Positions 7,044-58,542 of a stretch of DNA of 64,000 nucleotides are shown here, piece after piece. The DNA comes from an uncultured Clostridium sp. (GTDB lineage: Bacteria > Bacillota > Clostridia > TANB77 > CAG-508). Location: contig CAMBEE010000002.1 in NCBI GenBank assembly GCA_945865665.1, positions 57,961-121,960 on the forward strand. Direction: 5' to 3'. Below the pieces are notes generated by a model. That model had not been told where the DNA came from. It did no database searches and worked only from the letters and a program-made list of their open reading frames with translations. The translations under genes were made by a program, and so were the position numbers. The number at the start of each line of letters is the position of its first letter. Position 1 is the stretch's first letter.

Positions 7044-7169
7044 TAAAAAACATATAGAATAATATACAATATTTTGACAAAAAATTCAATTATTTATACA
7101 AAATTTTACAAAATATTATTACAAGATTTGGTTTTATAGTTGAAAATTTTATATTGATACTAAGTGGGC

Positions 7170-30952: not shown

Positions 30953-31028
30953 TGGTTGCGGGGGATGGACTCGAACCACCGACCTCAGGGTTATGAGCCC
31001 TGCGAGCTGCCAACTGCTCCACCCCGCG
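30953..31028 (-). tRNA. tRNA-Met (CAU), initiator type, CCA encoded
   Basis: The reverse complement reads CGCGGGGTGGAGCAGTTGGCAGCTCGCAGGGCTCATAACCCTGAGGTCGGTGGTTCGAGTCCATCCCCCGCAACCA. It is 76 nt and shows the cloverleaf, the three G-C pairs closing the anticodon stem, and the CGCGGGG…CCCCGCA acceptor typical of tRNA-fMet. Confidence 0.9.
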
Positions 31029-32163: not shown

Positions 32164-32242
32164 ACAATACAATATATATTAAAAATTATTAAAATTATCC
32201 ACAAAAAGAGATATAATTGTGGAAAAGAAATGGGAGATTTTA

Positions 32243-34171: not shown

Positions 34172-34218
34172 GGCTCATAACCCGAAGGTCGTAAGTTTGA
34201 GTCTTACCCCCGCAACCA
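34172..34218 (+). other. tRNA-Met 3' fragment (anticodon loop to CCA): attL of the integrative element
   Basis: GGCTCATAACCCGAAGGTCGTAAGTTTGAGTCTTACCCCCGCAACCA. It has no matching 5' half or D-arm upstream, and the T-loop reads TTTGAGT (the near-invariant C56 is replaced). Confidence 0.75.
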
Positions 34219-34312
34219 AAGAATTAATACTTACAGTTTCAACGACTGTGGGTATTTTTTTATGCCTTTAAAATGGTTGCAATAATGGTTAAAAATGATA
34301 ATATTATGTCGA

Positions 34313-36749: not shown

Positions 36750-36955
36750 TATTACCAAATAAAGATGTTCCTTTTGAAAAATCATTATTGAAATATAGTA
36801 TTGATGTGCTAAATTCAATAAATGGAAAAATAAAAGTAGAAGATTTGTATAAAAATACTAATATAAAAACTAAAGATATTGATGCTATTTTAGCGTTCCT
36901 ATATGCAATAAATAAAGTTGAAATAAATGATGAGTGGGTGATAAGGATTGATTAA
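36746..36955 (+). CDS. small (69 aa) protein, candidate ABC-3C middle component
   Basis: Translationally coupled on both sides: a 4-nt overlap upstream and an 8-nt overlap downstream. Confidence 0.6.
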   Translation: MILPNKDVPFEKSLLKYSIDVLNSINGKIKVEDLYKNTNIKTKDIDAILAFLYAINKVEINDEWVIRID

Positions 36956-38651
36956 AAAGATATATAGTCGAACATTAAAAACGTTTAAAACAATTGAGTT
37001 TAGCGAAGGATTTAATTTTCTTGTATCAGAGTCGGTTAACGGAAAAAGCAATAATGGAACTGGTAAAACTAGTTTAATTCAAATAATAAATTTTTGTTTT
37101 GGATCAAGTACGGAAAAAATATCTACATACGAAGACTTAAATAAAGAAGAATTTAGTGTTGACTTAGTAATTGATAATAAGACTATTACTTTATCAAGGA
37201 CCCCTCAAAATGTTACTAAAATCAAAATTATAGATAAAGAAAATCTATTAGGTGATGGTGTCTTAGAAGATGAACCTAAAACCATTGATTGGGTAAAAAA
37301 TAAATTAAACAAATTAATCTTTGGAATTGAAAATGAAGAGGTATCATTTAGAAATTTAATTTCACCATTTATGAAGAGAGGGGCGTTTGCATTTAATAAT
37401 ATATATAAAACACATGCTATGGAAACTAATATAGTAACCCAATTAAAAAACTCTTTTCTTATGAATATACCAATAGAACCTATCATAGAATTAAAAGCTC
37501 TAGTTGAAGAAAGAGAGTCATTCTTAAAGTTAAAAGAAATAAAAGAGACTGATATTATATGGAAAAAAGAAAAACAAAATACATTAAAAAGTAAAATTAG
37601 AAACTTAGATAAAGAGATAAAAGAAAATGAAGAAAAGCTTAAAAAATTTGAACTGACATTAAACGAAAAAGAGAATATAAATGATATTCATAAAATAAAT
37701 GCAGAATTATCAAATCTAATTAAAGAAAAATATATTTATCAAAACTACATAGAGTCTAATAAAAAGATTATAAACAATGATAGTCTTTTAGGTATTGAAC
37801 AAATAAGAGAGATTTTGGAAGAATCTAAATTTTTTGTTACAAATGGTGAAATGAAAACATTAGAAGAAATTCAGAAATATCATATTAAATTAAACAAAGA
37901 TAGAAATGAAAGAGTAAAAAGTTTAATAGAAAGTGATCAAAATAAAGTAAAAGAAATAGAATCAAAAATTGATGATATAAATTTAAAGAAAATAAATATT
38001 TTAAAAGAATTTGATAAAAAAGGATATTTAGATGACTATTATAGTACAAATGAGATCATAACTAATTTAAAAATTGAGAAAAGTGATTTAGAAAAACAAT
38101 TAGATGTATACATAGCATTAAATCAAATAGACACTAGTTGTAAAGAGAAAGTAAAATCAATAATAAAAAAGTTAGAAAAAAATGATAATTGCAATAATTT
38201 TAAGATTATAAATAATAAGTTTAAAGAATATATAAGAAAAATCTTTGATGAAGATGCTAAACTTATTATGGAATGTAAAAATACAGGAAATTATGCTACA
38301 AGAGGATATAATTATGATTGGGAAATACCTAGAAAATTAAGCAGTGGATATTTAAAAGGTTGTATTGCAGTATATGACTTAGTATTAGCAGACTCTAATA
38401 GTGATAGATTTCCAATATTTTTAATACATGATAGTGTAGTATTTGAATCTACAGATAAACAATATGTAGCGAAATTTCTAAATTTAACAAATGAAATCAT
38501 AGGAAATAATAGATTTCAATATATATGCTGTGTTAATGATGATCAAATAGTTAAAAATGAATTAAATAAAGCTGTATTAAAAAAATATGAAGAAGCACAA
38601 AGAATTTCACAAGAAGACACTTTATTTGGAATTAATTTTGGTAATAGATAA
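36948..38651 (+). CDS. SMC/Rad50-like ABC ATPase with coiled-coil insert (DUF2326-like; candidate ABC-3C ATPase)
   Basis: Walker A SNNGTGKTS at the N-terminus. ~250 aa of K/E-rich coiled coil. LSSGYLKG (signature-like) and FPIFLIHDS (Walker B) near the C-terminus. Confidence 0.75.
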   Translation: MIKKIYSRTLKTFKTIEFSEGFNFLVSESVNGKSNNGTGKTSLIQIINFCFGSSTEKISTYEDLNKEEFSVDLVIDNKTITLSRTPQNVTKIKIIDKENLLGDGVLEDEPKTIDWVKNKLNKLIFGIENEEVSFRNLISPFMKRGAFAFNNIYKTHAMETNIVTQLKNSFLMNIPIEPIIELKALVEERESFLKLKEIKETDIIWKKEKQNTLKSKIRNLDKEIKENEEKLKKFELTLNEKENINDIHKINAELSNLIKEKYIYQNYIESNKKIINNDSLLGIEQIREILEESKFFVTNGEMKTLEEIQKYHIKLNKDRNERVKSLIESDQNKVKEIESKIDDINLKKINILKEFDKKGYLDDYYSTNEIITNLKIEKSDLEKQLDVYIALNQIDTSCKEKVKSIIKKLEKNDNCNNFKIINNKFKEYIRKIFDEDAKLIMECKNTGNYATRGYNYDWEIPRKLSSGYLKGCIAVYDLVLADSNSDRFPIFLIHDSVVFESTDKQYVAKFLNLTNEIIGNNRFQYICCVNDDQIVKNELNKAVLKKYEEAQRISQEDTLFGINFGNR

Positions 38652-42769: not shown

Positions 42770-42796
42770 AAGTAATAATTAGTGGGGGCAATTATT

Positions 42797-44743
42797 ATGA
42801 TAGTATATGAAGCAACAAAACAATCTTTTTTGGAAGATGTTTATAATGATCAAGTAGCAAAAAAAATTAAAGAAAAAATAGGATTTAATGTTGGAAGTAG
42901 TGAAAATGAATCTTGGATAGATACAGCAAATCATATGGAAAAAATATTAAGAGATAATAGATTTCCAAATGATATTTCTGTAGCAATGGAATTTAAATTA
43001 TACAATTCAAAGCTAAGAGTGGATTTTATAATATGTGGATTAAATGAAGAAATGAAACACACAATTATAGTAATAGAATTTAAAAGATGGAATAGTGTCA
43101 AAGTAGTTACAGACAGAGATGATATGGTAGAAGTAAAAGCTTATGGGATAGTACAGCATCCATCATATCAAGCACTTTCATATGCAAAAGTCATAAAGAA
43201 CTTTTATGCAGCTGCAGAAGAGGACAAAATGACTATATATCCATGTTCGTGTTTACATAGATATGAAAAAAAAGAAAACGATGCTATAACGGATAATCAA
43301 TATAAAGAACTTTTAGAGGAATCACCAATTTTTTTAAATGGGGAAAATGATAAATTAAAAGAGTTTATTAGTAAACATATAAAATACGGAGACAATAAGG
43401 AAACCTTATATATATTAGAAGAAGGTGGTATTAAGCCTTCAAAACAGTTACAAGATAATATACTAAATATGTTGAATGGAAAAGAAGAATTTTCTATGGT
43501 AGATTTACAAAAAGACGTATTTGAAGAAGCAAAAAGATTAGCAAAATTATCAAAAAAAGATGGTAAGAAAAGAGTCTATATAGTAGAAGGTGGACCTGGT
43601 ACAGGTAAGTCTGTAATTGCAATAAATTTACTAGGACAACTTTTAGGAAAGTATGGAATGAACTGTCAGTATATAACAAAAAATCAAACACCAAGAGATG
43701 TATATTCTGTTCAATTAAAAGGAACTTATAAAAAGACTGAAATTGATAATTTGTTTTGTGGGTCAGGATCATATATAAAAGAGAAAAGTAATGACTTTGA
43801 TGTATTAATTGTTGATGAGGCACATAGACTCACCGAAAAGACAGGATTTTTAAAAAGGGGAGAAAATCAAATAAAAGAGATTATCAATGCTACTAGATTT
43901 GCAATATTTTTTATTGATTCAAAACAACGTATACATATAGATGATTATGGAACAAAAGAAAGGATAGAGTTTTTTGCTAAAGAATTAAATGCTGAAATAT
44001 CATATGGAAAATTAAATGCACAATTTAGATGTGGAGGAGCTGAAAAATTTATAGATTGGGTAGAAAGTTCTCTACAGTATAATGACGTGAGTGATGAAGA
44101 AATAGATATGACATTTCTTAAAGATTATAAAGTTAAAATTTTTGATAATCCAAATGAGCTAAAAGAACAAATTATTAGATGTAACAATATTAAGAATAAA
44201 TCAAGAATATTGGCAGGATACTGTTGGGATTGGATTTCAAAAGAAAATCCTAAAGGCAATAAATATGATATAGAGATACCAGAATATGATTTTAAAATGA
44301 AATGGAATTTTAATAAAACAATTTGGGCAATAGATAAAGATTCTGTTGAACAAGCTGGTTGCATACATACATCACAAGGACTAGAGTTTGATTATGTTGG
44401 AGTAATAATAGGAAAAGATTTACGTTACGAAAATGGAAAAGTTATAACAGATTTTAAAGAAAGAGCATCAACAGATAAGTCATTATCTGGAATTAAGAAG
44501 ATGTATAAAGAAAACCCAGAAGGAGCTTTAAAATTAGCAGATGAAATTATAAAAAATACATATAGAACATTATTAACAAGAGGACAAAATGGATGTTATA
44601 TATACTGTGAGGACAAAGCTTTAGCAGAATACCTAAAAAGAAGTTTAGAACAAGTTAGTAAAATTATTTATAAAATTGATGAAGATGATGAATTTGGAAA
44701 ACTGATGGTAGCTGAAGAAGGAGAAGAATATAAATATAAATAA
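42797..44743 (+). CDS. DUF2075-type (Schlafen-helicase-like) ATPase with N-terminal PD-(D/E)xK-like nuclease region
   Basis: N-terminal …RVDFIICG…IIVIEFKRW (restriction-endonuclease-like D…E.K). Walker A GGPGTGKS (43589-43612). Walker B DVLIVDEAHRL. C-terminal TSQGLEFDYVGVIIG (SF1 motif VI-like). The start is moved to ATG 42797. Confidence 0.75.
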   Translation: MIVYEATKQSFLEDVYNDQVAKKIKEKIGFNVGSSENESWIDTANHMEKILRDNRFPNDISVAMEFKLYNSKLRVDFIICGLNEEMKHTIIVIEFKRWNSVKVVTDRDDMVEVKAYGIVQHPSYQALSYAKVIKNFYAAAEEDKMTIYPCSCLHRYEKKENDAITDNQYKELLEESPIFLNGENDKLKEFISKHIKYGDNKETLYILEEGGIKPSKQLQDNILNMLNGKEEFSMVDLQKDVFEEAKRLAKLSKKDGKKRVYIVEGGPGTGKSVIAINLLGQLLGKYGMNCQYITKNQTPRDVYSVQLKGTYKKTEIDNLFCGSGSYIKEKSNDFDVLIVDEAHRLTEKTGFLKRGENQIKEIINATRFAIFFIDSKQRIHIDDYGTKERIEFFAKELNAEISYGKLNAQFRCGGAEKFIDWVESSLQYNDVSDEEIDMTFLKDYKVKIFDNPNELKEQIIRCNNIKNKSRILAGYCWDWISKENPKGNKYDIEIPEYDFKMKWNFNKTIWAIDKDSVEQAGCIHTSQGLEFDYVGVIIGKDLRYENGKVITDFKERASTDKSLSGIKKMYKENPEGALKLADEIIKNTYRTLLTRGQNGCYIYCEDKALAEYLKRSLEQVSKIIYKIDEDDEFGKLMVAEEGEEYKYK

Positions 44744-44865
44744 GAATTAATAATTATTGAAAAAAAGGTAATAATATAATATACTTATAATGATGATAAA
44801 CATATTTTATAAAATTTAATATAATTAATAATAGAAGATTTTAAGAATTATGGGGAGATATTATT

Positions 44866-45297
44866 ATGAAAGTGATAGAGGTTGCTGAATTTTTTTTGAC
44901 AAAGCAAAGCATGACAAATAAAAAAATACAGAAACTATGTTATTATGCACAAGCATGGTTTTATGCTTTATATAATAGAAAATTATTTGATGAAAAAATT
45001 GAAGCATGGGTGCATGGACCAGTTTGCCCTATATTATATAGAGAATATGCTGAGTTTGGATACAAAGAGGTACCTAAAATAAATAAAGAAATAAAGATGC
45101 AGGAAACGGAAAAAGATATTTTAAATCAAGTGTGGGAAATATATGGAAAACTGGATGGAGATGAATTAGAAGTTTTGACACACAGAGAACAGCCATGGAT
45201 AGAAGCTAGAAATGGAATTGATTATAGAAAACCATCTAATAATGAAATATTGCCACAAAATATGGGAAAATATTATAAAGAAAAATATGGTGTATAA
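44866..45297 (+). CDS. Panacea-domain (DUF4065, SocA/GepA-like) antitoxin
   Basis: KKIQKLCYYAQAWFYALYNRKLFDEKIEAWVHGPVCPILY is the hallmark Panacea motif. RBS GGGGAG. Confidence 0.8.
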   Translation: MKVIEVAEFFLTKQSMTNKKIQKLCYYAQAWFYALYNRKLFDEKIEAWVHGPVCPILYREYAEFGYKEVPKINKEIKMQETEKDILNQVWEIYGKLDGDELEVLTHREQPWIEARNGIDYRKPSNNEILPQNMGKYYKEKYGV

Positions 45298-45881
45298 TGC
45301 CTAAGAAGAATAGAAAAAAGAATATTCCTGCAGATGTAATTTCAAAAGAATTAGAAAAAATTAATTCGAAAGATAATGAAAAAGTAATATTTAGTTTTGA
45401 TTTTTTGGATAGATATCATGAATTATTTAATATGGGAGATAATAAAGATAATCCATTAAGTACAGAAGTAGGTTGGTTTTTGGATCTTTTAGATTGCTTA
45501 AATAATGTATCTAAGATGACAAGAGTCGAATTTAAATCTAATACAACATATGACCTTCATCCTGTGAACTGGGCAGGGGCAAATATTAATTGCCCTGCAG
45601 ATATGGAACAATATGAGTGGTGGCAGTTTAGAATAAGTAAAAGTAAAGGAAGAATTGTTGGAATTTTTATAGAAAATTGTTTTCATATTGTTTGGTTAGA
45701 TAGATATCATAACTTGACCAACAGTGAAGGATATGGAAAAGAGAATCGTTATAAAGTACCATTAAGTTTGTATGAAATGAAAGAGATAGAATTAAGTAAA
45801 GCATATGATAGAATAAAAGAATTGGAAGAAGAAAATTCTATATATGAAGACTTATTTGGTTATAAGGAGGGATTAACATGA
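45297..45881 (+). CDS. candidate toxin (194 aa); the C-terminal half resembles RelE/YoeB-fold toxins
   Basis: The start overlaps the PanA stop by 1 nt (TAATG). WWQFRISKSKGRIVGIFIENCFHIVWLDRYHNL parallels the YoeB/RelE pattern W.RRI…HRLVY…I…RYHY. Inference only. Confidence 0.5.
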   Translation: MPKKNRKKNIPADVISKELEKINSKDNEKVIFSFDFLDRYHELFNMGDNKDNPLSTEVGWFLDLLDCLNNVSKMTRVEFKSNTTYDLHPVNWAGANINCPADMEQYEWWQFRISKSKGRIVGIFIENCFHIVWLDRYHNLTNSEGYGKENRYKVPLSLYEMKEIELSKAYDRIKELEEENSIYEDLFGYKEGLT

Positions 45882-46699
45882 TATTACAATTTGAAGAAAA
45901 AAAGATTGAAGTGAAAGAAGAGTACGTAAAAACTGTGACTTCTAAATCTACAGGAAATGAATTAAATACATATAGATTTAAAATCAGAGTGGCTGGAAAA
46001 GAAAAATTTGAAGATTTTAAGAATAAAATGAATATGTATAAAGAAAAATTTATTTCTCAAATTGATGATAACGGAAATATATTGGCTAAATATAATGTAG
46101 GAACATGGAGTTATAGATACTATAATGAATTTGATTCAGAAGATACGAATTATTTGTGTGATGTAGAAATTATACAAGGTGAAGAATTAAAAACTGATAT
46201 TATAATTATTGAAGGAATAGAAAATGAAGTACTGAAATACAAAGAAGAATTTGACAATTATAATAAAGCTATTGTTATTAGAGCTATAATAAAAAATACA
46301 GAAGAACAAAGAGAAAAAATAAATAATGCTATTGGAGATAATAAATATTTTAAAGTAAAAAGACCAGGAATAAATAACGAAATATTAGAAATGCGATTTG
46401 GAAAAACAATATGGTCTAAACATGAAGGCTATATAAAAAGAAGTATTGTTCTAGTCGAAAAAAAATATGATGAAAATGACAAATTAAAAAAACCGTTTTT
46501 TTGGCCAGAATTAACCAATATGATGGATATTATGGCTAAAAATACTGTTTATATAGAAAAGTTAGAGGAAACATTGAAAAAAAATAATATGATAACTGAT
46601 GAAAATATAAAAGAAATAAAGATACAAGTGGAAAAAGAATATAAGAATGTATATAGACAATACTATCTAGTAGAAGATGTAGAAGAAGACTTTGAATAA
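45878..46699 (+). CDS. hypothetical protein (273 aa), third gene of the PanA operon
   Basis: 4-nt ATGA overlap with the upstream gene. Strong RBS AAGGAGGG 7 nt upstream. No recognisable motif. Confidence 0.65.
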   Translation: MILQFEEKKIEVKEEYVKTVTSKSTGNELNTYRFKIRVAGKEKFEDFKNKMNMYKEKFISQIDDNGNILAKYNVGTWSYRYYNEFDSEDTNYLCDVEIIQGEELKTDIIIIEGIENEVLKYKEEFDNYNKAIVIRAIIKNTEEQREKINNAIGDNKYFKVKRPGINNEILEMRFGKTIWSKHEGYIKRSIVLVEKKYDENDKLKKPFFWPELTNMMDIMAKNTVYIEKLEETLKKNNMITDENIKEIKIQVEKEYKNVYRQYYLVEDVEEDFE

Positions 46700-46834
46700 T
46701 ATTACAGTTAGATAGAAACAATTATACAACTTGTTTCTAATATGGAACAACAATAAATATTATAAATAAAAACTTTCTTTTTTTGGAAATAACATGATAT
46801 AATATTATTAGATTAAAAAAGGAGAGTTTTTATT

Positions 46835-47770
46835 ATGTTAGGAGAGAAAATAAAATTATGTAGAGAAAGTAAAAATATGACTCAGGTTGAAATTGCAGAA
46901 ATATTGGGGGTAAAAGCAGCCACTGTTTCTAAATATGAGTCTGGAACTTTAGAACCTAATATTGAATCATTGAAAAAGTTAGCTGAATTATTTGATATTT
47001 CAATTGATGAGTTATTAAAAGAAGATGATTTTGATATATCTAAAATAAATATTTTAGAAGTATTAAGAGAGCAAAAAAATATGAAATTAAAAGGAAATTT
47101 GTATCACAATACTCAAATTACATTTGCATATAATACAAATCATATTGAAGGAAGTAAGCTCACAGAAGATCAGACTAGATATATTTATGAAACTAACACC
47201 TTATTGGCAGAAAAAGATTCTATTACAGATTTAGATGATGTATTAGAAACGGCTAATCATTTTAAATTAGTTGATTATATGTTAGATATAGCAGGTAAAA
47301 AGTTAGCTGAAAAGATGATAAAAGAGTTTCACAAAATATTAAAAGAAGGAACATCAGACAGTAGAAAAGATTGGTTTGCTGTTGGAGATTATAAGAAATT
47401 ATCAAATGAAGTAGGGGGACTAAAAACTACAGATCCTAAAAATGTTGAGCGAGATATGAAAAAATTATTAGAATGGTATGAGTCTTTGAAACAAGTTACA
47501 ATAAATGAAATAATAGAATTTCATGCTAAATTTGAAAAGATACATCCGTTTCAAGATGGAAATGGGAGAATCGGTAGATTAATTGCATTTAAAGAATGCT
47601 TAAAGAATAATATAGTACCGTTTATTATTCTAGACAAAGATAAATTGTTTTATTATAGAGGGTTAAACCAATATCAAACTAATAAAGAAAAAGGATATTT
47701 AATAGATACTTGTTTAAATGCACAGGATCAATATACAGAAATGATTAAATATTATGTTGGAAATAAATAA
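46835..47770 (+). CDS. XRE-family HTH + Fic (AMPylase/Fido) domain protein
   Basis: N-terminal LGEKIKLCRESKNMTQVEIAEILGVKAATVSKYESG (HTH_XRE). Fic motif HPFQDGNGRIGR at 47543-47578. Confidence 0.9.
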   Translation: MLGEKIKLCRESKNMTQVEIAEILGVKAATVSKYESGTLEPNIESLKKLAELFDISIDELLKEDDFDISKINILEVLREQKNMKLKGNLYHNTQITFAYNTNHIEGSKLTEDQTRYIYETNTLLAEKDSITDLDDVLETANHFKLVDYMLDIAGKKLAEKMIKEFHKILKEGTSDSRKDWFAVGDYKKLSNEVGGLKTTDPKNVERDMKKLLEWYESLKQVTINEIIEFHAKFEKIHPFQDGNGRIGRLIAFKECLKNNIVPFIILDKDKLFYYRGLNQYQTNKEKGYLIDTCLNAQDQYTEMIKYYVGNK

Positions 47771-47777
47771 ACTAAAG

Positions 47778-47826
47778 AAAAGCAAAATAATAGTAATTAG
47801 ATATTACAGAATTATTTTGCTTTTTT
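47778..47826 (+). terminator. rho-independent terminator after fic
   Basis: 10-bp stem gcaaaataat/attattttgc with a structured loop, followed by TTTTTT. It is duplicated at ~50333-50382. Confidence 0.65.
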
Positions 47827-47921
47827 GATAATAAGAGACAAGTTACGACAAAATTTTCAAATAGTAAGTGCTATATTAGATGTTAAATTATCGATAAAGA
47901 TATGTAATAGGAAGGAAGTAT

Positions 47922-48713
47922 ATGTTTACAAATAGGGAATTAGCTATAATGATATGGGTCAATGTGTTTATATTGTATTGTTTATTAAAGCCAGATGTAA
48001 GGCAATCGTTTAAGAATGTAATAAAAGCAACATTTAACAAAAAATTAGTAATGTTATATATTATTATATATACATATATGGCATTTTGTATATATATTCT
48101 TTATAAGGTAAGATTTTGGAATATAAATTTATTGAAGGATACTCTTATATGGCTTATAACTATACCTATATTCTCGATAATAAAAGCAGAAGAAGATAGT
48201 AAAAAATACTTTAGAGAGACATTAAAGAGTTGTTTTGAAGTTTATATCTTAATAGAATTTATAGGAGTTAATTATCCTTTTAGCTTATGGATCGAATTAA
48301 TTATCATTCCAATTGTATTATTATTTTCATTAGTAGGAGAATTTGGAGAAAGATTCGGAGGAACGAAGGAAGTTTCTACTTTTGCATATTCTATAGTTAT
48401 AATAATATCTTTTGCTGCATTTGTACATTCAATAAGGCTAATGATTAATGATATACAAAATATTTTTACTGAAGACACTCTAAAAAGTATAATTTACATA
48501 CCAATATTGACTATAATATATATGCCAATGACATATTTAATATTAGTTTTTATGAAATATGAAACATTTTGGGTTAGAGTAAAGTGTAAAAACTATTTAT
48601 CAAAAAAAGATAAAAGAATGGTAATGTGTAAAGCAATAAAAAATTGCAAACTAAATCTTAATAAGATAAAAAATATAAAGTTAGAAGAATATATAAATAT
48701 TATGGAGAGATAG
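47922..48713 (+). CDS. hypothetical multi-pass membrane protein (263 aa, ~6 TM)
   Basis: RBS AGGAAGGA. Strongly hydrophobic segments throughout. No family recognised. Confidence 0.7.
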   Translation: MFTNRELAIMIWVNVFILYCLLKPDVRQSFKNVIKATFNKKLVMLYIIIYTYMAFCIYILYKVRFWNINLLKDTLIWLITIPIFSIIKAEEDSKKYFRETLKSCFEVYILIEFIGVNYPFSLWIELIIIPIVLLFSLVGEFGERFGGTKEVSTFAYSIVIIISFAAFVHSIRLMINDIQNIFTEDTLKSIIYIPILTIIYMPMTYLILVFMKYETFWVRVKCKNYLSKKDKRMVMCKAIKNCKLNLNKIKNIKLEEYINIMER

Positions 48714-48715
48714 AT

Positions 48716-49651
48716 ATGAAAAATTATGGAAAATGTCATATATGTGGAAAAAACACACAATTAACATTCGAGCATATTCCACCTGAAAAAGCAAACAATT
48801 CTGACGATGCACATGCAATATTAGGTGATACATTGATGAATCATATAGGAAGTACAAGGCAACCATGGGATTTAACGGGATTAAGATATAAAAATTTGCA
48901 ACGAGGAATGGGAGGATATACATTATGCGAAGCTTGCAACAATAATACTGGAGCATGGTATGCAGATGATTATATTAATTTCGTTAATACTATAGGATAT
49001 GTACTAACAAATAAAGTAGATTTAGAAAAAGTTAAAGCAGTAAAAATTGAATTAAAAGAGATGCATCCTTTAAGAATTTTTAAGCAGATAATTTGTATGT
49101 TTGCGTCTACAATGCATGCAGAATTTTTTGATGCACATCCAGCACTAAGAGATTTTATTCTCAATAGAGAATCTACGAATTTTGATCCAAAAAAATATAG
49201 AATTAGCATGTATATCTTAAAAGAACCCCGTTGTGGTTGGTCTGGGTTAAATGTTATGATGTATGGTAATGGAAAGATTAAAACAGTAGCATATATGGAT
49301 TTATATCCAGTAGGATTTATATTAGAAATAGATCCAACAGAAGATACATTTGAATATGTATCTGATATTACAAATATGGGTACTGATTTTACATATAATG
49401 ATAAAGGAATATTAGGAGTTACATTAAACATCCTAGAAAGAAATACTTTGTGGGTAGGAGATTTTAGAAGTAAAGAGGATATTTTAAAGCAAAGTAAAAA
49501 AAGTAGAATTGATACAATAGAAATAATTAAAGATGAAATGAATAGATTAAATATAAAAGAAGAAAAATACAAAAGTGTTATTGATGAATATATCAATAAT
49601 CAAATAAGTTCAAGTGAATTTTTAAATAGGATTGAACAGATAAAAGGCTAG
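48716..49651 (+). CDS. hypothetical protein with N-terminal HNH-like treble-clef motif (311 aa)
   Basis: CHICGKNTQLTFEHIPPEKANN…YTLCEACNNNTG (CxxC…EH…N…CxxCN). It starts 3 nt after the membrane-protein stop, with RBS GGAGAG. Confidence 0.65.
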   Translation: MKNYGKCHICGKNTQLTFEHIPPEKANNSDDAHAILGDTLMNHIGSTRQPWDLTGLRYKNLQRGMGGYTLCEACNNNTGAWYADDYINFVNTIGYVLTNKVDLEKVKAVKIELKEMHPLRIFKQIICMFASTMHAEFFDAHPALRDFILNRESTNFDPKKYRISMYILKEPRCGWSGLNVMMYGNGKIKTVAYMDLYPVGFILEIDPTEDTFEYVSDITNMGTDFTYNDKGILGVTLNILERNTLWVGDFRSKEDILKQSKKSRIDTIEIIKDEMNRLNIKEEKYKSVIDEYINNQISSSEFLNRIEQIKG

Positions 49652-49757: not shown

Positions 49758-49770
49758 AAAAGATATTTAA

Positions 49771-50064
49771 TTAATTATCAAAACTACCACCAATTAGCAG
49801 CAGCCCATCGAAAAAAACATTCCTATAATATTTCTCATTCCAATAATCAAGATATTTCATAAAATCATCATACAATTTATCAAGTTGAGACTGAACAAAC
49901 TGCTTATTATCCTTAGAAACATTACGAAAAATTTTCTCGCAAAACTTATCAAAATTCAAACTATCTTTATAATCCTTATCAGAAAGTTGACAAAGTAAAG
50001 ACTCCTATCTAAACATTAACCAATCTTCCAAAATATCATCATTAACTTCTCTTAAATTATTAAT
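49771..50064 (-). pseudogene. decayed copy of the small gene at 53256-53549
   Basis: The DNA aligns with 53256-53549. The start codon is changed (CAT->AAT at 50062) and there is an in-frame stop (…EDWLMFR* versus …KDWLEFREET). Only the C-terminal 62 codons remain open. Confidence 0.75.
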
Positions 50065-50233
50065 AATCTAAAATTTCCTAAAAATATCTCTTATAAGAGC
50101 TAATTTTGTAAGAACAAACGTATCATACCCATTGGGTAAAATCTTCTCCAAAAATACCTAAAAAGATACAAATGTTCTACAAATCAAAAATCTTGTAAAT
50201 ACCTAAATACCAACAAAAACACGTCAAACCTTG

Positions 50234-50437
50234 CTAATAAAGAAAAAGGTTATTTAATTGATACTTGTCTAAATGCTCAAGATCAATATATATAAATTAT
50301 TAAATACTATATAGGTAATAAATAAACAAAAGAAAAGCAAAATAATATTAATTATATATTACAAAATTATTTTGCTTTTTTGATAGAAAATGACAAGATT
50401 CGACAAAAAAATACTAGTAAAAGTTGTAGAATAAAAA
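50234..50437 (+). repeat. duplicated fic 3' end + terminator + downstream leader (copy of 47679-47880)
   Basis: ctaataaagaaaaagg(t/a)tatttaat(t/a)gatacttgt… through the gcaaaataat…attattttgctttttt terminator and …gacaag(a)ttcgacaaaa aligns with the end of the intact fic gene. Confidence 0.8.
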
Positions 50438-50449
50438 AGGGGAATAAAA

Positions 50450-52570
50450 ATGAAAATTGATTTGCATTGTCACACAAAAAGAACGAAGATAGGGGATCCT
50501 GAAACTAGAAATGTTACTTTAGAATTATTTAAAGAAAAGATTATTAATAGTAATGTTAGAATTGTAGGAATAACAAACCATAATCTATTTGATGTGCATC
50601 AATATAATGAATTAAAGGAAAGTGTTACTGGATTTGCACAAGTCTGGCCAGGAATTGAACTAGATGTAAAATACAAAGGTAATATAGGACATTTAATTGT
50701 TATATATAATCCAGAAAAAATAAGTGAATTTGAAATTCTGCTGAACAAATTAATAAATGAGCAAACTCCTGATGAAGTAGAAATAGATTTAAATGAATTT
50801 GTAAAGGATTTCTCAACTAAAGATGCTATATTTATTGCACATGACTACAGAAAAGCACAAAGTTTTAGCAGAGAAATGATTGAGATATTAAAGAGCGGAA
50901 TTACCGAAAAATATAGAATATTTTCAGAACCTAGTAGTTTTAAGAGTTTGAGTATTATGTTAGATAATGGAATACAAGCAATCTTGGGAAGCGATATTAA
51001 AGATTGGACCAATTATCCAAATTGTGAATTGCCTGAATTAAAGTTAGATGTAGATAGTTTTGAAAAATTAATTTTATTAGCCAAAAAGGATAGAGCTACC
51101 ATAAACACATTATTAAATAAAAAAGAACAAAAAATAAAAGAAATTCAAATAAAGATTAATGATTCTAAAAAAGAAAAAACAAAGATACCAATATATAATG
51201 ATATAAATGTGATTTTTGGAACAAAGGGAACAGGTAAAACAGCGGTTTTAGAAGGATTAAAGAACAAATACTTACAAGATGGAAACAGATATTCTTTCTA
51301 TAGAGCTTCAGATGTAGATGAGGTAATGGACCAAAAATTAAAATTTAGCGATACAGAAAGAACCAATACCAATTTAGATATCAGTTTTGTCAAAGAAATG
51401 ATAGAATTTATAAAAAATTGGGAAGAAATTTTACCAACATCCTTAAATGACTATATTGAATATTCAAAGACAAAAAAGAACAACAAAAATAAAGGAAGAT
51501 TAAAGATTACAGCCTTAAAGACAACTTTTAAAAATAATAGTAAGTTAAATAAACTAAAAAATGAATATCAAATAGTAAAAGATATTATTAGTCAAATAGA
51601 AGAATATAATTTAGAAAAATATTTAATACCAGAAGATGCAAAAGTATATAAAGAAATTAATAATAAAATAAAAGAAAATTGTTTTTCTTTATTAAAATTA
51701 GAACATATTGATTATTATTCAAATAAATTAAGTAATGCTAGTATAAAAATAATTAAACAAAAAGCTGATTTATGTACAACGTCAAAGTCTTTACCGGATA
51801 GTACAGGTTTTTTGGAATTTTCACAGAATTATTTAAATTTGAAAAATCATATTCAAAACTTTAAAAAGTGTATGGATGGTAAAACGGAAAAAAGCAGAGA
51901 AAAAATAGGAAATCTTGATGAAGGTAAAGAGGTATATTTATCTGTTGAACATAGGATATTCAAAAGTAAAGTTAAAGAATTTAAATATGGGCAAAATATC
52001 AGTGATTTAAATAAAATATGTAATTTAATTTTGGGATTAGATAAAAATTTTAAGGTAGAACTCAGTGAGAAAATAGATAATATAAGGGAAGAATTTGAAA
52101 AAGTTAATTTAAAAGCAAAAGATTTCATTGGAATAAAAAAACAGTATGAAAATAAACTAGGTGAATACTACAAGCCTTCAGATGGAGAAAAAATAATGTT
52201 AATATTGCATAAAAAAATATTCGAAGATGCAGATGTATATTTATTAGATGAGCCAGAAAGAAGCTTAGGAAATACTTTTATAAATTCTGTAATTGTACCT
52301 AGGATTGTAGAATTAGGAAAAATGGGAAAAACAGTGATTGTGGCAACACATAATGCTAATATAGCAGTTAGAACATTACCTTTTACCTCAATATTGAAAT
52401 CTTATGAGAATGGAAAATATAAAACATATATTGGTAATCCTTTTACAAATGAGCTGATAAATATAGAAGATAGTAATGATACTAAGAATTGGAAGGATGA
52501 AAGTATTAAGGTATTAGAAGGTGGAAAAGAAGCTTTTGATGATAGGAGAATAGTGTATGAATCAAGATAG
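50450..52570 (+). CDS. PHP-phosphoesterase domain fused to an ABC/OLD-like ATPase (706 aa)
   Basis: N-terminal IDLHCHTKRT…GITNHN (PHP metal-binding His motif, 50459-50476). Walker A GTKGTGKT. C-terminal PSDGEK (signature-like), VYLLDEPERSLG (Walker B/D-loop), VATHNANI (H-loop). Confidence 0.8.
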   Translation: MKIDLHCHTKRTKIGDPETRNVTLELFKEKIINSNVRIVGITNHNLFDVHQYNELKESVTGFAQVWPGIELDVKYKGNIGHLIVIYNPEKISEFEILLNKLINEQTPDEVEIDLNEFVKDFSTKDAIFIAHDYRKAQSFSREMIEILKSGITEKYRIFSEPSSFKSLSIMLDNGIQAILGSDIKDWTNYPNCELPELKLDVDSFEKLILLAKKDRATINTLLNKKEQKIKEIQIKINDSKKEKTKIPIYNDINVIFGTKGTGKTAVLEGLKNKYLQDGNRYSFYRASDVDEVMDQKLKFSDTERTNTNLDISFVKEMIEFIKNWEEILPTSLNDYIEYSKTKKNNKNKGRLKITALKTTFKNNSKLNKLKNEYQIVKDIISQIEEYNLEKYLIPEDAKVYKEINNKIKENCFSLLKLEHIDYYSNKLSNASIKIIKQKADLCTTSKSLPDSTGFLEFSQNYLNLKNHIQNFKKCMDGKTEKSREKIGNLDEGKEVYLSVEHRIFKSKVKEFKYGQNISDLNKICNLILGLDKNFKVELSEKIDNIREEFEKVNLKAKDFIGIKKQYENKLGEYYKPSDGEKIMLILHKKIFEDADVYLLDEPERSLGNTFINSVIVPRIVELGKMGKTVIVATHNANIAVRTLPFTSILKSYENGKYKTYIGNPFTNELINIEDSNDTKNWKDESIKVLEGGKEAFDDRRIVYESR

Positions 52571-52862
52571 TAATAAAATAATAGTGGAATTAAAAAAAGA
52601 AAATAATGATGATGTTTTGGAATTTCAATTCAAAAATAAAATACTAATTAATTTTAATAAATCAGATAATAACGACATAAAAGAAGTTTTTAAAATTGTT
52701 TTAGAAGAATTAACAAAATCTATTTTTAATTTTGAATTAAAAATTGCTGATGGATATGATGTGGACTTATATAAGGAAGTGGTAACTACATATATTGAAG
52801 AATTAAATGAAGAGATAGAGCAACTCGTAAATTCTGAAGAATGGAAAGAAATATATGATTAA
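52557..52862 (+). CDS. small acidic protein (101 aa) coupled to the PHP-ATPase
   Basis: RBS AGGAGA 7 nt upstream. 14-nt overlap with the end of the ATPase gene. E/D-rich, with no recognised motif. Confidence 0.6.
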   Translation: MNQDSNKIIVELKKENNDDVLEFQFKNKILINFNKSDNNDIKEVFKIVLEELTKSIFNFELKIADGYDVDLYKEVVTTYIEELNEEIEQLVNSEEWKEIYD

Positions 52863-52923: not shown

Positions 52924-53229
52924 TTATTGACGTATTCCACTTCCACCAAGACTCATGATAACTAAATTCAAACAATCTGCAAATCCTGCTTGATAATATT
53001 TTTCATTATAAAAAGATGAAAATTCCAAAATCTGTTTATAAAACTTTTTAAATTCATTAGAAACATACTTATAGTCTTGTCCAGAAATATAACTTAAAAT
53101 CTGATTCTCAAATGAATCAAAGTCTAATTTCTGATTGCTTTTCATATTTTTAAATCTATCAAATTCATTATCTCTAAAATTAATCCATTGTTTTATTAAA
53201 TTTTCAACAAATTCTTTATTTATTTTCAT
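52924..53229 (-). CDS. small helical protein, paralogue of 53256-53549
   Basis: The start is set at MKINKEF (RBS GGAGG). It shares …NEKYYxxGFxD(C/G)xxL(V/I)… with its neighbour. Confidence 0.6.
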   Translation of the reverse strand: MKINKEFVENLIKQWINFRDNEFDRFKNMKSNQKLDFDSFENQILSYISGQDYKYVSNEFKKFYKQILEFSSFYNEKYYQAGFADCLNLVIMSLGGSGIRQ

Positions 53230-53255
53230 ATCTAAAACCTCCAATACTAATACAA

Positions 53256-53549
53256 TTATTCTCCAAAGCATCCTCCAATCAATTCAACCCCATCGCAGAA
53301 ACCATTCCTATAATATTTCTCATTCCAATAATCAAGATACATCATAAAATCATCATACAATTTATCAAGTTGAGACTGAACAAACTGCTTATTATCCTTA
53401 GAAACATTACGCAAAATCTTCTCGCAAAACTTATCAAAATTCAAACTATACTTATAATCCCTATCAGAAAGTTGACAAAGTAAAGTCTCCTCTCTAAATT
53501 CTAACCAATCTTTCAAAATATCATCATTAACTTCTCTTAAATTATTCAT
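53256..53549 (-). CDS. small helical protein (element right-end module)
   Basis: The start is set at MNNLREV (RBS AGGAGG). The ORF-track N-terminal extension has no RBS and runs into the att region. Confidence 0.6.
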   Translation of the reverse strand: MNNLREVNDDILKDWLEFREETLLCQLSDRDYKYSLNFDKFCEKILRNVSKDNKQFVQSQLDKLYDDFMMYLDYWNEKYYRNGFCDGVELIGGCFGE

Positions 53550-53637
53550 AATATAAATCCTCCTAAAAATTAAAATTTTTCTTAATAAAAATATCTCTAA
53601 CAAGAGCCAATTTTGTAAGAACAAACGTACCATACTC

Positions 53638-53660
53638 ATTGGGTAAAAATTGGGTAAAAT
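53638..53660 (+). repeat. tandem 11-mer (ATTGGGTAAAA x2), candidate integrase arm-type site, right end
   Basis: Identical to 34313-34335. Confidence 0.6.
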
Positions 53661-53777
53661 CATCTCCAAAAATGCCCTAAAAATGCACGAATGTTCTATA
53701 AACCAAAACTCTTGTAAATACCGAAATACCAACAAAAATTCTAATTTTCACAAAACTACAAAAACCGGTCAAACCTC

Positions 53778-53792
53778 GCTCATAACCCGAAG
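53778..53792 (+). repeat. attR core (GCTCATAACCCGAAG)
   Basis: Exact 15-bp repeat of 34173-34187. The flanking sequence is not tRNA-like. Confidence 0.7.
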
Positions 53793-53956
53793 CCCACCCA
53801 TAAAAAATATAATATAGATATACAAGAAAAAAAGCACGCATCAATACTAACTCATATAAAAAAATAGTGAAAAAAGTAAATACTTTTTTCATTCTACACT
53901 ATAAAATTCCCTATAATTATGATATAATTCCCATAAAAATAAAAAGGAGGAAAACC

Positions 53957-54871
53957 ATGGATTTAACAATAGAAGTAGAAAACTACAAACTAAACATAAG
54001 AGCAGCAGGGATAATAGAACACAACGGAAAAATATTAGTACACAAAGAAATAAGCAAAGACCACTATGCACTAATAGGAGGAAGAGTAAAAATAGGAGAA
54101 AATTCAGAAACAACAATCAAAAGAGAAATTAAAGAAGAACTTGGAAAAGAAATAAAAACAACAGGATATATAGCAACAATAGAAAATTTCTTTGAAGAAA
54201 AAGGACAAAAATATCACGAAATACTATTTGTACACAAAGCAGAATTCATAAACGAAGAAGACAAAAAAATAGAACATACACTAAAGAATGTAGAGGGCAA
54301 AGAAAACTTACACTATGAATGGATAGAAATAAGCAAAATAGATGAATATAAAATCCTACCAGAAGCAATAAAAGAAATACTAAAAGAAAATAAAATACCA
54401 GTACATAAAATAAACAATGATTTGAAAAATGAATTTGAATCAAATGAAGTAAACAATATATTAAGCAAAAACACCAACAACAAAAGAGAAAAATGCTGTG
54501 GATGTATTTTAATAAATGATAATAAAGTATTACTAATCAAACAAACGCAAGGACATTGGGGATTTCCAAAAGGGCATGTAGAAAAGAATGAAACAGAACT
54601 TGAAACTGCAACAAGAGAGGTGAAAGAAGAAACCAATTTAGAAGTAGAAATTGATGCTAATAAAAGATATACAATGGAATATGAAACAGATAAAGGAACA
54701 TTAAAACAAGTGGTTCTATTTGTTGCAAAATGCACAGGTGGAGAGATTAAAGCACAGGAATGTGAAGTTAAAGAGATAAAATGGTTAGATTTCGATGAAG
54801 CAGTTAAAACAATTACATATGAAAATACTAGAGAATTATTTAAGAAAATACTTAAAGATATAAAAGAGTAA
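53957..54871 (+). CDS. tandem double-NUDIX hydrolase
   Basis: Two Nudix boxes: GGRVKIGENSETTIKREIKEELG and GHVEKNETELETATREVKEETN. The start is moved to ATG 53957 (RBS AAGGAGG at 53944-53950). Confidence 0.85.
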   Translation: MDLTIEVENYKLNIRAAGIIEHNGKILVHKEISKDHYALIGGRVKIGENSETTIKREIKEELGKEIKTTGYIATIENFFEEKGQKYHEILFVHKAEFINEEDKKIEHTLKNVEGKENLHYEWIEISKIDEYKILPEAIKEILKENKIPVHKINNDLKNEFESNEVNNILSKNTNNKREKCCGCILINDNKVLLIKQTQGHWGFPKGHVEKNETELETATREVKEETNLEVEIDANKRYTMEYETDKGTLKQVVLFVAKCTGGEIKAQECEVKEIKWLDFDEAVKTITYENTRELFKKILKDIKE

Positions 54872-54962
54872 AAAATAATTATACTACTAGAGAATTTTAA
54901 AATTTAATATTGATCCACAAAAAGTGATATAATTGTGGAAAATAATAACAAGGAAACAAAAA

Positions 54963-57041: not shown

Positions 57042-57366
57042 AAAATTAATAAAATGACAAATTTCGACACAAAAATAGAAAAATAAATAGTATAATTTCA
57101 ATATACCAAAATATTCATATAAATTAATTAGAATTCAAGAATTTTTTATGGGGTAGAACACTAAAAAACATTCTACCCCAGTATTTTATATCATTAAAAT
57201 TTTAATTTTTAAAATTAGCCGAATAATCAAATTTTAAACTTATTTTCAAAATAAAAATCCAAAATAAAATCAAAAAATCACACAACAATCCACATATTGT
57301 GATATAATAGTGGAAAAATAACAGAAAAGTTCAAATGACAATGAAAAAATAAGGAGGAGAAAAATT

Positions 57367-58341
57367 ATGTGTACAGCAGCAACATATAAAACAAAAGACT
57401 TCTATTTTGGGAGGACACTAGACTATGAATTCTCATATGGAGATGAAATAACAATAACACCAAGAAATTACGAATTCAAATTCAAAGAAACAGAACAAAT
57501 AAAAAATCACTATGCAATAATAGGAATGGCATATGTAGCAGAAAACTACCCACTATACTATGACGCAATAAACGAAAAAGGATTAGGAATAGCAGGACTG
57601 AACTTTGTAGGAAACACGCACTACAACTCAAAAGAAGAAGAAAAAGATAATATAACACAATACGAATTTATACCATGGATTTTAAGTCAATGCACAACCG
57701 TAAAAGAAGCACGACAACTAATAGAAAAAATGAACTTTTTAAATGAACCATTTAATGAACAATTACCACTAGCACAATTACATTGGATTATAGCAGACAA
57801 AGAAGAAGCCATAACAGTTGAAGCAATGAAAGATGGAATAAAAATATATGAAAACCCTGTAGGAATTTTAACTAATAACCCGCCATTTGATAAGCAAATG
57901 TTTGCATTAAATAACTATATGAACTTATCACCTAAATCTCCTGAGAATAAATTTGCAAAAAATATAAATTTAGATAGATACAGCAGAGGAATGGGAGCAA
58001 TAGGACTTCCTGGTGATTTATCTTCACAATCTAGGTTTATAAGAGCAAGTTTTGTAAAAATGAACTCAGTTTCAAAAGATACAGAAAATGAAAGTGTTAG
58101 CCAATTCTTCCATATTCTTAATTCAGTAGATCAACAAAGGGGATGTTGTGAGGTAGATGACGGAAAGTATGAGATAACAATTTATACATCTTGCTGTAAT
58201 GCAAGTAAAGGAATTTATTATTACACAACATATGATAACCATCAAATTACAGCAGTTGATATGCATAAGGAAAATCTAGATAGTAAAGAACTTATAAGAT
58301 ATCAATTAATAAAAGAAGAACAAATCAAAATTCAAAATTAA
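57367..58341 (+). CDS. choloylglycine (bile-salt) hydrolase family Ntn-hydrolase
   Basis: MCTAATYKTKDFYFGRTLD has the nucleophile Cys2. The length is ~324 aa and the N-terminal block is typical of BSH/PVA. Confidence 0.85.
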   Translation: MCTAATYKTKDFYFGRTLDYEFSYGDEITITPRNYEFKFKETEQIKNHYAIIGMAYVAENYPLYYDAINEKGLGIAGLNFVGNTHYNSKEEEKDNITQYEFIPWILSQCTTVKEARQLIEKMNFLNEPFNEQLPLAQLHWIIADKEEAITVEAMKDGIKIYENPVGILTNNPPFDKQMFALNNYMNLSPKSPENKFAKNINLDRYSRGMGAIGLPGDLSSQSRFIRASFVKMNSVSKDTENESVSQFFHILNSVDQQRGCCEVDDGKYEITIYTSCCNASKGIYYYTTYDNHQITAVDMHKENLDSKELIRYQLIKEEQIKIQN

Positions 58342-58350
58342 TAAAAGACA

Positions 58351-58517
58351 CAAGATTTGGCAGACAAAATTTTGAAAAAAATTTTGGATGACGATGAGCG
58401 AAACGCCCAAGATTTGGCAGACAAAATTTTGAAAAAATTTTGGATGACGATGAGCGAAACGCCCAAGATTTGGCAGACAAAATTTTGAAAAAATTTTGGA
58501 TGACGATGAGCGAAACG
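58351..58517 (+). repeat. tandem direct repeat, 3 units of 57/56/~54 bp
   Basis: caagatttggcagacaaaattttgaaaaaa(a)ttttggatgacgatgagcgaaacgcc at 58351-58407, 58408-58463 and 58464-~58517. Confidence 0.9.
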
Positions 58518-58542
58518 AAGTGAAGCGAAAGGAAAAACAAAA

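Follow-up and report, generated by a model that had tools for sequence, protein, structure and literature searches.

What does a small acidic protein without a recognised fold do beside a large protein in which a PHP phosphoesterase domain is joined to an ABC-type ATPase? The role of this fold-orphan partner is the key question raised by a two-gene cassette in a 64,000-nucleotide stretch of contig CAMBEE010000002.1 (GenBank assembly GCA_945865665.1) from an uncultured Clostridium sp.; the whole stretch is hereafter called the window, and the coordinates of its main features are collected in Table 1. The original prediction, made from the sequence alone, described the cassette as a two-component variant of Ppl, a system in which PHP and ATPase domains are encoded by a single gene and which Gao et al. 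reportedly presented in 2020 as anti-phage, and proposed the small protein as an inhibitor, antitoxin or DNA mimic. We found that the gene pair is genuine: the two genes make up an operon that is conserved in many lineages and is carried, in the window, by a mobile island. The window pair is a divergent member of an already catalogued candidate class, and the two-gene layout is the rule of its family rather than a variant.

The open reading frames (ORFs) of the two genes overlap by 14 nt (52557-52570), the ATG of the small ORF lying 14 nt before the TAG of the large one, and the letters of the junction are GATAGGAGAATAGTGTATGAATCAAGATAG. The ribosome-binding site of the partner gene is carried by the last codons of the large gene, so that both the overlap and the separate AGGAGA site described in the original prediction are in place. 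The G+C content is 23-35% per 1-kb interval across the stretch and only ~23-26% near the cassette, and thus an ORF of 706 codons is not a chance event. In comparisons with close relatives, the large gene had a ratio of nonsynonymous to synonymous substitution rates (dN/dS) of 0.10, and the value of 0.20 obtained for the small gene indicates purifying selection. No third gene follows the window pair; instead, there is a stem-loop, which is probably a bidirectional terminator closing the operon, and then a convergent ORF. Translational coupling joins the two genes in a single operon.

The same arrangement is found far beyond the window. Relatives of the large protein are encoded by at least 553 of 185,579 species genomes, with a patchy distribution across phyla, and the large-protein homologues form 1321 clusters at 90% identity. 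The check for a partner covered 80 loci from reference genomes. It had been proposed at the outset to look for a similar small acidic ORF behind homologues of the ATPase, and the answer was uniform: the small ORF is conserved, and a homologous acidic ORF lies over the 3' end of the large gene in 82 of the 82 loci with an intact large gene. These partner ORFs encode 79-130 amino acids (aa), mostly 94-120, with isoelectric points (pI) of 4.2-5.7, and 14 nt is the commonest length of the overlap. A GA(A/G)AG(A/G)GG motif, encoded by conserved C-terminal 'E/D-R' codons of the large gene, stands at an equal distance before the partner ATG in most loci; in some loci of Bacillota, the automatically picked partner ATG is located further upstream and has no such motif before it. 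A jackhmmer search seeded with the window small protein recovered all small sequences (83/83, the window included). Three large homologues (84%, 51%, and 40% identity) have called genes of 99, 105, and 79 aa, respectively, that overlap their 3' ends and whose products resemble the window small protein in sequence, and the PGAP annotation, made independently, gives the same overlapping pair on plasmids of Staphylococcus aureus and Photobacterium damselae. The S. aureus pair, on pCOL52-A5, consists of WP_000861768.1 and WP_000393989.1, and the P. damselae pair of WP_341496145.1 and WP_341496144.1.

The pair was identified in Bacillota, Actinomycetota (Eggerthellaceae, Collinsella), Saccharibacteria, Bacteroidota, several proteobacterial classes (Pseudomonadota), Planctomycetota, Verrucomicrobiota, Omnitrophota, and one archaeal metagenome-assembled genome (MAG) of the Nitrososphaeraceae, including plasmid-borne copies in Staphylococcus aureus, Clostridium, and Photobacterium. 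The closest relatives among the matches listed are Clostridia MAGs, and the window sequence itself is present in bovine, pig, and mouse gut metagenomes. There was one natural partner-less state, in Alicyclobacillus sacchari (GCA_030161715.1), where the partner is cut to 79 aa (7108-7347) and a Transposase_mut gene starts 80 nt downstream of the truncated partner, while the large gene (707 aa) is intact.

Based on sequence profiles and a structural model, the large protein is predicted to combine a PHP domain of RNase AM-like fold, an ABC ATPase resembling those of SMC, RecN, and AriA, a helical insertion, and a C-terminal domain. A linker separates the PHP domain from the ATPase. The AlphaFold2 model built from the family alignment has a mean pLDDT of 86. 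Conservation of motifs was read from an alignment of 17 homologues with identity down to 39%. The candidate metal ligands of the PHP domain, D4, H6, and H8 (in IDLHCHT), H44, E70, H81, H131, and D182, are invariant in two alignments, and motif II (TNHN, N43-H44-N45) is conserved in the alignment of 17 homologues. In Foldseek comparisons with PDB, the domain matched RNase AM (7ug9, probability 1.00, TMt 0.62) and the PHP phosphoesterase BAD_1165, and a PHP-only profile aligned motif by motif, weakly, with the PHP phosphoesterase 9etk_A. In the ATPase, the Walker A motif (GTKGTGKT, aa 256-263; G257 and K259-K263 invariant), a signature-like motif (PSDGEK, S577-x-G579-E580), the Walker B motif (VYLLDEPE, D600-E601-P-E603), and the H-loop (ATHNAN, T633-H634-N635) are all conserved. 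The model places helices of the insertion at 364-385, 394-442, and 454-475. Invariant residues also run through the C-terminal region (P644, S647, G655, Y657, G662-F665, W681, E684, L689-G692, R699, and Y703). We consider the identity and architecture of the pair, as described here, to be highly probable.

The fusion of a PHP-type metal site to an ABC-type ATPase, the quoted motifs, and the K/E-rich insertion that had been read from the sequence are thus all borne out by the conserved catalytic motifs and by the fold matches. The description of the ATPase as OLD-like found no support. Only ABC_tran and AAA_21 were matched in Pfam, weakly and below threshold, and no Toprim domain was found in the large protein by Pfam, PADLOC, and NCBIfam searches; the last 60 residues form a small beta-rich domain. 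We rejected the OLD-like reading, which would call for a Toprim domain as in the OLD/Gabija nucleases, on this ground. By sequence, the nearest PDB profile to the N-terminal lobe is PARIS AriA (residues 15-75, E 4e-8), and the C-terminal lobe has profile matches to ABC ATPases of known structure. By fold, the nearest structures are the heads of SMC2, cohesin, RecN, JetC, and retron-IA proteins with coiled-coil stubs (E ~2e-5 to 1e-3).

We compared the pair with catalogued defence families. As the PADLOC search proposed earlier was run, the large protein was matched over its full length by a model of PDC-M49A (PDLC04680, E 3.3e-30, 103 bits, residues 2-704 against 3-670 of 674) and also by a second one (PDLC04678, E 4.5e-19), the weaker matches being AriA, HEC-02A, and PtuA. 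PDC-M49A was matched by 17/17 large homologues (best E 3e-41), in each case better than Ppl. The Ppl model (PDLC02208) was matched by six of the 17 (best E 7e-12) but by the window large protein not at all at E<=10. The link to Ppl therefore stands as a distant kinship of the family, and the window protein itself falls outside the Ppl model. The view of the pair as a two-component variant of Ppl has to be given up: since PDC-M49A fits better than Ppl and a partner is present in all 82 loci, we regard the pair as belonging to a separate, obligately two-gene family.

PDC-M49 comes from the work of Payne et al. 2024 (bioRxiv 10.1101/2024.01.29.577857), who derived 145 'phage defence candidates' from genes lying inside BREX, DISARM, and type I restriction-modification (R-M) loci. 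In the supplement of that paper, PDC-M49 is represented by two-gene cassettes, FAM_00021>>FAM_01695 and FAM_00021>>FAM_02682 (bioRxiv 10.1101/2024.01.29.577857); in our literature search, the name 'PDC-M49' occurred in no main text and only in this supplement. The likeness to PDC-M49 includes the end-to-end match of gene A and a second gene directly downstream on the same strand. Many homologues have type I or II R-M genes or other defence genes as neighbours, which may be a further likeness. On the other hand, 103 bits are modest for ~700 residues, suggesting a divergent subfamily, and the window partner has no PDC-M49B match. The candidate PDC-M49 is the closest catalogued entity, and its B-gene models do not cover the subfamily of the window.

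The comparison with Ppl and TrlF defines the family further. E. coli Ppl is reported to be a 3'-5' exonuclease on single-stranded DNA that is inhibited by NTP and needs 3'-OH ends (2026 review, PMC12904381). The window large protein shares with Ppl an N-terminal PHP domain and a C-terminal P-loop/ABC-type NTPase in one polypeptide, as well as distant sequence homology; in contrast to single-gene Ppl, the window family always has a small partner. TrlF is named after the temperature-restricted locus (TRL) trlF-trlR-trlG of Photorhabdus, in which a small gene of 79 aa likewise stands behind trlF (bioRxiv 10.1101/2020.06.02.129163). The window protein scored 107.1 bits with the NCBIfam TrlF model (NF045780), which is below membership at the curated cutoff of 350 bits. 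It aligned by hhalign with an 873-aa TrlF-family protein of E. coli pSYM5/6 over residues 1-270, the PHP domain and Walker A (97.2%, E 3.6e-11), and by tblastn with 27-28% identity over residues 513-705, a region that includes the C-terminal domain common to TrlF proteins. The PHP domain, Walker A, and the C-terminal third are thus collinear. However, TrlF proteins are longer (873-944 residues, with a longer middle region), TrlF of E. coli pSYM5/6 is a lone gene with no downstream partner, the ORF behind a Serratia TrlF gene shows no relationship with the small family (hhalign probability 1.2%), and the window pair has no adjacent equivalent of trlG. On a Serratia marcescens plasmid, TrlF is followed by two ORFs of ~175 aa without an assigned family. 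Genes for the 873-aa TrlF-family protein are common on conjugative enterobacterial plasmids, which make up most of the 260 records at E<=1e-3 (104 Escherichia and 43 Klebsiella records among them). We place the window pair in a shorter, obligately two-gene sister family of TrlF and Ppl.

Other defence systems, namely PARIS (AriA), Septu (PtuA), HEC-01/02, and Gabija/OLD, also pair an ABC ATPase with a nuclease, and AriA is the closest relative of the N-terminal lobe with a solved structure. In the window protein, however, a PHP domain within the same chain takes the place of the separate or fused Toprim, HNH, or NERD nuclease; the partner, ~100 aa long and matching no recognised family or fold, is probably no effector.

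The small protein has a pI of 4.32, with 25 D+E against 12 K+R. The acidic residues cluster in its C-terminal helices (net charge -9), whereas the ATPase and insertion of the large protein are basic (pI ~9). The model of the small protein (pLDDT 86) consists of three beta-strands, a helix, a strand, a long helix, and a short helix, and the family has six invariant residues (K42, F45, Y79, L83, N84, and E86). Searches of Pfam, NCBIfam, and PADLOC gave nothing meaningful, with no PADLOC model matched even at E<=10; PDB sequence profiles gave chance-level matches only, and the best Foldseek matches of the model had E 0.29 in PDB and 0.096 in the viral BFVD. The small family comprises 424 clusters in a representative library at 50% identity, almost all of them standalone proteins of 90-115 aa, and 1031 clusters at 90% identity in a collection of 5.8 billion proteins, all unnamed and without a Pfam domain. 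Weak LmuC-like matches apart, which are discussed below, the small protein is a partner without a known fold or family.

The neighbours of the homologues include DpnII, Mrr, and methylase genes together with Hachiman at one locus, and AAA_21/RloB, NUDIX, and Cas6 genes at another; elsewhere we found recombinases and Tn7-like genes, an Eco47II R-M system with Vsr, Mob, TnpV, and TIR/SEFIR genes, Eco57I/BsuBI R-M genes, and IS257 with Fst toxins. Among 109 immediate neighbours at 65 non-redundant loci, the most frequent were ResIII (7), phage integrase (6), DEAD (5), SNF2 (4), and HsdR (3), followed by DNA methylases, RloB, GmrSD, TIR, and recombinases; these counts are qualitative, being made without a genome-wide background. 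A few homologues have housekeeping neighbours, some of them without nearby defence genes. The neighbours of the window pair itself are other candidate defence or toxin-antitoxin (TA) genes, not R-M genes. Altogether, the family resides on plasmids and islands beside R-M and other defence genes.

The explanation that we favour, with a probability of about 0.55, is that of a coupled operon carried as island cargo and encoding a PHP-ATPase nuclease together with a regulatory small subunit. In this explanation, the pair would be cargo of a ~19.6-kb integrase island whose host is a Clostridia-like gut bacterium of low GC content, the large protein would be a single-chain nuclease-ATPase with a PHP domain of the RNase AM/TrpH type and an intact metal site, and the acidic protein of 101 aa would be its obligatory partner subunit. 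By analogy with Ppl (as a 3'-OH-sensing exonuclease) and SMC-like defence ATPases, and more broadly with a single-chain SbcCD/Mre11-Rad50, ATP-bound ATPase heads would dimerise and engage foreign DNA ends or structures, and head engagement would license the PHP domain for degradation of nucleic acid. The small subunit, supplied in fixed proportion through translational coupling, would bind the basic surface of the ATPase and insertion, acting either as a safety catch (an autoinhibitor, possibly DNA-mimicking) or as a sensor or adaptor that sets activation. The motif set, the architecture, the strict co-inheritance, the purifying selection, and the context of mobile elements and defence islands are the observed part of this explanation; the anti-phage function, the nucleic-acid substrate, the physical complex, and the regulatory role of the small protein are what we infer. 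A role of the pair in defence, taken by itself, is fairly probable, and the specific regulatory mechanism is put forward as tentative.

Several observations weigh against this explanation. PDC-M49 is listed as a candidate only (Payne et al., bioRxiv 10.1101/2024.01.29.577857). None of the small-family members matched the PDC-M49B models at E<=0.01 (0/25 and 0/41), nor did the window small protein at E<=10; since the latter matches no PADLOC model, PADLOC would call no complete system in the window. Catalysis by the PHP domain is not guaranteed, because the domain is divergent: the window large protein has no Pfam PHP match at E<=0.01, motif II has N-H-N in place of D-H-D, and D182 is not followed by a His. 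An exhaustive profile search found no fusions of the large and small proteins, the few longer hits being chimeras or miscalls. No consensus promoter was found upstream of 50450, where the count of promoter-like sites equals the shuffle expectation and is uninformative, and metatranscriptome contigs from one dataset cover the large gene only (50967-51316 and 52037-52464), which is too weak as evidence that the small ORF is expressed. Finally, the truncation of the partner by an insertion sequence (IS) in A. sacchari, with the large gene intact, suggests that the large protein alone is not obviously lethal and weakens the role of a safety catch.

The last point also bears on the alternative that survives best, a TA-like module in which the PHP-ATPase would be a growth-arresting toxin and the small protein a dedicated antitoxin, perhaps a DNA mimic blocking the DNA-binding surface, and whose main role would be stabilisation of the mobile element, or abortive infection upon loss of a labile antitoxin. 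We consider this unlikely, even though a small, very acidic protein is tightly linked to a nuclease-like enzyme, the location on plasmids or islands is frequent, and the neighbours in the window include the TA-like modules SocA/Panacea and Fic. The trlF-containing TRL operon of Photorhabdus causes conditional growth arrest, but the mutations affecting temperature restriction mapped to trlG and not to trlF (bioRxiv 10.1101/2020.06.02.129163). Unlike the antitoxin genes of typical type II systems, the small gene is downstream and coupled, so that its product is hard to make in excess of the large protein, and Pfam and PDB Foldseek searches found no helix-turn-helix (HTH), ribbon-helix-helix (RHH), or AbrB-type domain in it that could serve in DNA binding and autoregulation. 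The antitoxin reading fits less well because of this position and coupling of the gene and because of the IS-truncated partner in A. sacchari. A gene placed downstream and translationally coupled in this way would more readily encode a stoichiometric subunit than an antitoxin of the classic kind.

A stoichiometric subunit could also be a positive structural one. In a compact complex of the Lamassu/SMC type, the small protein would be an LmuC- or kleisin-like adaptor that binds the ATPase heads and without which the active ATPase dimer would not assemble, and the PHP domain would be an LmuA-like effector in cis. As in Lamassu, an SMC-like ATPase has a small protein encoded beside it; a structural subunit would be in keeping with the strict 1:1 co-inheritance and with the coupling, and the best folds of the large protein are the SMC, RecN, JetC, and retron-IA heads with coiled-coil stubs. 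About half of the small-family members tested gave weak matches to the PADLOC LmuC model PDLC03874 (6/25 and 21/41). These matches are sub-significant, however (best E 7e-5), and the window small protein has none. The matching sequences are related to each other, not independent, and the same ones weakly match the REase_II and DndH models, which suggests a shared helical motif and not homology. No LmuC/DdmB chain appeared in PDB sequence or fold searches of the small protein, and LmuB is absent from the 25 top PADLOC families listed for the large family. This makes a Lamassu-type complex quite improbable.

Least probable of all, and very doubtful, is that the pair has no defence role and is an SbcCD/Mre11-Rad50-like module of DNA-end processing or repair for replication, recombination, or maintenance of the mobile element, since the likeness of a nuclease with a Rad50/SMC-like ATPase to SbcCD in fold matches, the replisome organiser and DnaC-like loader encoded on the same island, and the homologues that lie between housekeeping genes without nearby defence genes are set against the patchy distribution with frequent R-M and defence neighbours, no link to replication genes at other loci, no phage genome carrying a homologue of the large protein, and the discovery of the relatives Ppl and PDC-M49 through defence screens or embedding in defence loci.

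The island that carries the pair lies between two exact copies of a 15-nt attachment (att) core and is ~19.6 kb long (34.2-53.8 kb), the gene pair being its last cargo. The left att copy, which the integrase gene adjoins, is inside a 3'-half fragment of tRNA-Met (34172-34225) without its 5' half, and an intact tRNA-Met gene is located on the opposite strand at 30953-31028. The island also encodes HNH and DUF2326/AAA_23 genes, the replisome organiser and the DnaC-like loader, and a MazG-like gene. Near the integrase end (36012-38651), an HNH_2 endonuclease gene is followed by a gene for a 567-aa AAA_23/DUF2326 protein, an SMC-like ABC ATPase, and together these two could form another pair with a role in defence. 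Several candidate defence or TA genes lie in a row at 42782-47770. They encode an SLFN-type helicase with a NERD-like N-terminus (PDC-S41/Nhi-like), a SocA/Panacea antitoxin-like protein, whose gene is followed by two ORFs without a family (45297-46699), and, matching PDC-S04 with E 2.6e-107, an HTH-Fic protein. Another segment, termed cargo cassette A (47922-49651), encodes a membrane protein of 263 aa that crosses the membrane several times and another protein, of 311 aa, that begins with a Cys-rich/HNH_5-like motif; the proteins of this cassette have no Pfam match above threshold and match no PADLOC model.

The original prediction placed the gene pair in the second copy of a variable slot, and this agrees with the repeats R1 and R2 (~89% identical) and the copies of the Fic 3' end, which bracket two different cargo segments. 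R2 is followed by GGTCAAACCTCGCTCATAACCCGAAG, which is the att core, and R1 by GTCAAACCTTGCTAATAAAGAAAAAGG..., which continues as the degenerate Fic 3' end; the switch point is a microhomology, CTAATAA in Fic against CTCATAA in the att core. The simplest reading of these junctions is that two related islands, differing in the cargo that lies between Fic and the right arm, inserted one behind the other, and that recombination between the hybrid att and a pseudo-core in Fic then removed the int-to-Fic part of the second island. The outcome would be two stacked cargo segments, cassette A and the PHP-ATPase pair. Another metagenome contig has the identical pair with the same upstream island and different downstream cargo. 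In gut metagenome runs, the depth of the right-arm module (53175-53762) was ~2-40x that of the cassette, depending on the run and highest in X1 and X4, suggesting that this module is common to many elements or genomes in those communities. At the right end of the island, 52924-53271 (-) and 53256-53735 (-) are paralogous ORFs of ~100 aa that share a ...NEKYY..GF.D... motif, with a degenerate copy at 49771-49959 (-); they matched no family, apart from one chance-level DndF hit.

Table 1. Positions in the window of the gene pair, the predicted domains of the large protein, and the features of the surrounding island.
Feature	Position	Strand	Description	Basis
Large gene	50450..52570	+	706 aa, ATG start; PHP phosphoesterase fused to SMC-like ABC ATPase (PDC-M49A-like; distant relative of TrlF/Ppl)	ORF list
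Small partner gene	52557..52862	+	101 aa, ATG start; overlaps large gene	ORF list
Ribosome-binding site of small gene	52543..52548	+	AGGAGA; inside large gene, 8 nt before small-ORF ATG	read from sequence
Stem-loop	52877..52912	.	16 bp; between small gene and convergent 115-aa minus-strand ORF	terminator scan
PHP domain	50450..51049	+	aa 1-200	invariant metal-ligand candidates, Foldseek, motif alignment, hhalign to TrlF PHP region
ABC ATPase, N-terminal lobe	51170..51349	+	aa 241-300	Walker A; profile match to AriA
Basic K/E-rich helical (coiled-coil-like) insertion	51350..51874	+	aa 301-475; pI 9.1	model helices
ABC ATPase, C-terminal lobe	51875..52384	+	aa 476-645	invariant columns; weak Pfam; PDB profile matches
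Conserved beta-rich C-terminal domain	52385..52567	+	aa 646-706	invariant residues; model strands E646-680
att core	34173-34187 (left), 53778-53792 (right)	+	GCTCATAACCCGAAG, 15-nt exact direct repeat	two exact matches, 0 expected by chance
Integrase	34507-35700	-	adjoins left att copy	Pfam
Repeat module R1, right-arm copy 1	49769..50219	.	ends in att-like sequence fused to Fic remnant	repeat families, junction alignment
Repeat module R2, right-arm copy 2	53254..53738	.	leads to att core	repeat families, junction alignment
Degenerate copy of Fic 3' end and terminator	50234..50408	+	last ~25 codons of Fic; just upstream of operon	87% identical to 47679-47853

Other features of the window lie outside the island. 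Three tandem copies of a 56-nt unit (the second and third 95% and 70% identical to the first) occupy 58367-58534, between a gene at 57367-58341 that resembles choloylglycine hydrolase, as judged from its sequence only, and the next ORF. A promoter- or operator-like element of ~50 nt with ATCCACA...GATATAAT.GTGGAAAA occurs in three copies upstream of genes (32178-32229, 54894-54945, and 57269-57320). The NUDIX genes at 32219-32716 and 53867-54871, located on either side of the island, share a 300-nt stretch of 80% identity, and two giant ORFs, 8476-21000 (4174 aa) and 22324-27177 (1617 aa), are found upstream of the island.

These results bring into view a large sister family of the Ppl-type PHP-ATPases, nucleases that are only recently becoming understood, in which a small partner of no known fold is always present (more than 1300 clusters at 90% identity). 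The current PADLOC models miss the B gene of the window subfamily, and the alignments from this analysis can close the gap. At the level of the locus, the stacking of two related integrase islands via a secondary att-like site inside the Fic gene would illustrate how defence cargo builds up. The small protein, with its orphan fold, could be an obligatory regulatory subunit of a new kind that serves immune proteins combining a PHP nuclease with an SMC-like ATPase; this is a possibility that we rate as rather unlikely, and within it the protein might be a DNA-mimicking safety catch or a trigger sensor, setting the family apart from single-gene Ppl and TrlF. If that is true, the pair is a widespread defence system (more than 1000 clusters in many phyla, including an archaeon) with a mechanism of activation not yet described. 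The copy on the S. aureus plasmid is a tractable model, and if the pair is a defence system, its comparison with single-gene Ppl and TrlF would reveal how an accessory subunit controls an ATP-gated nuclease.

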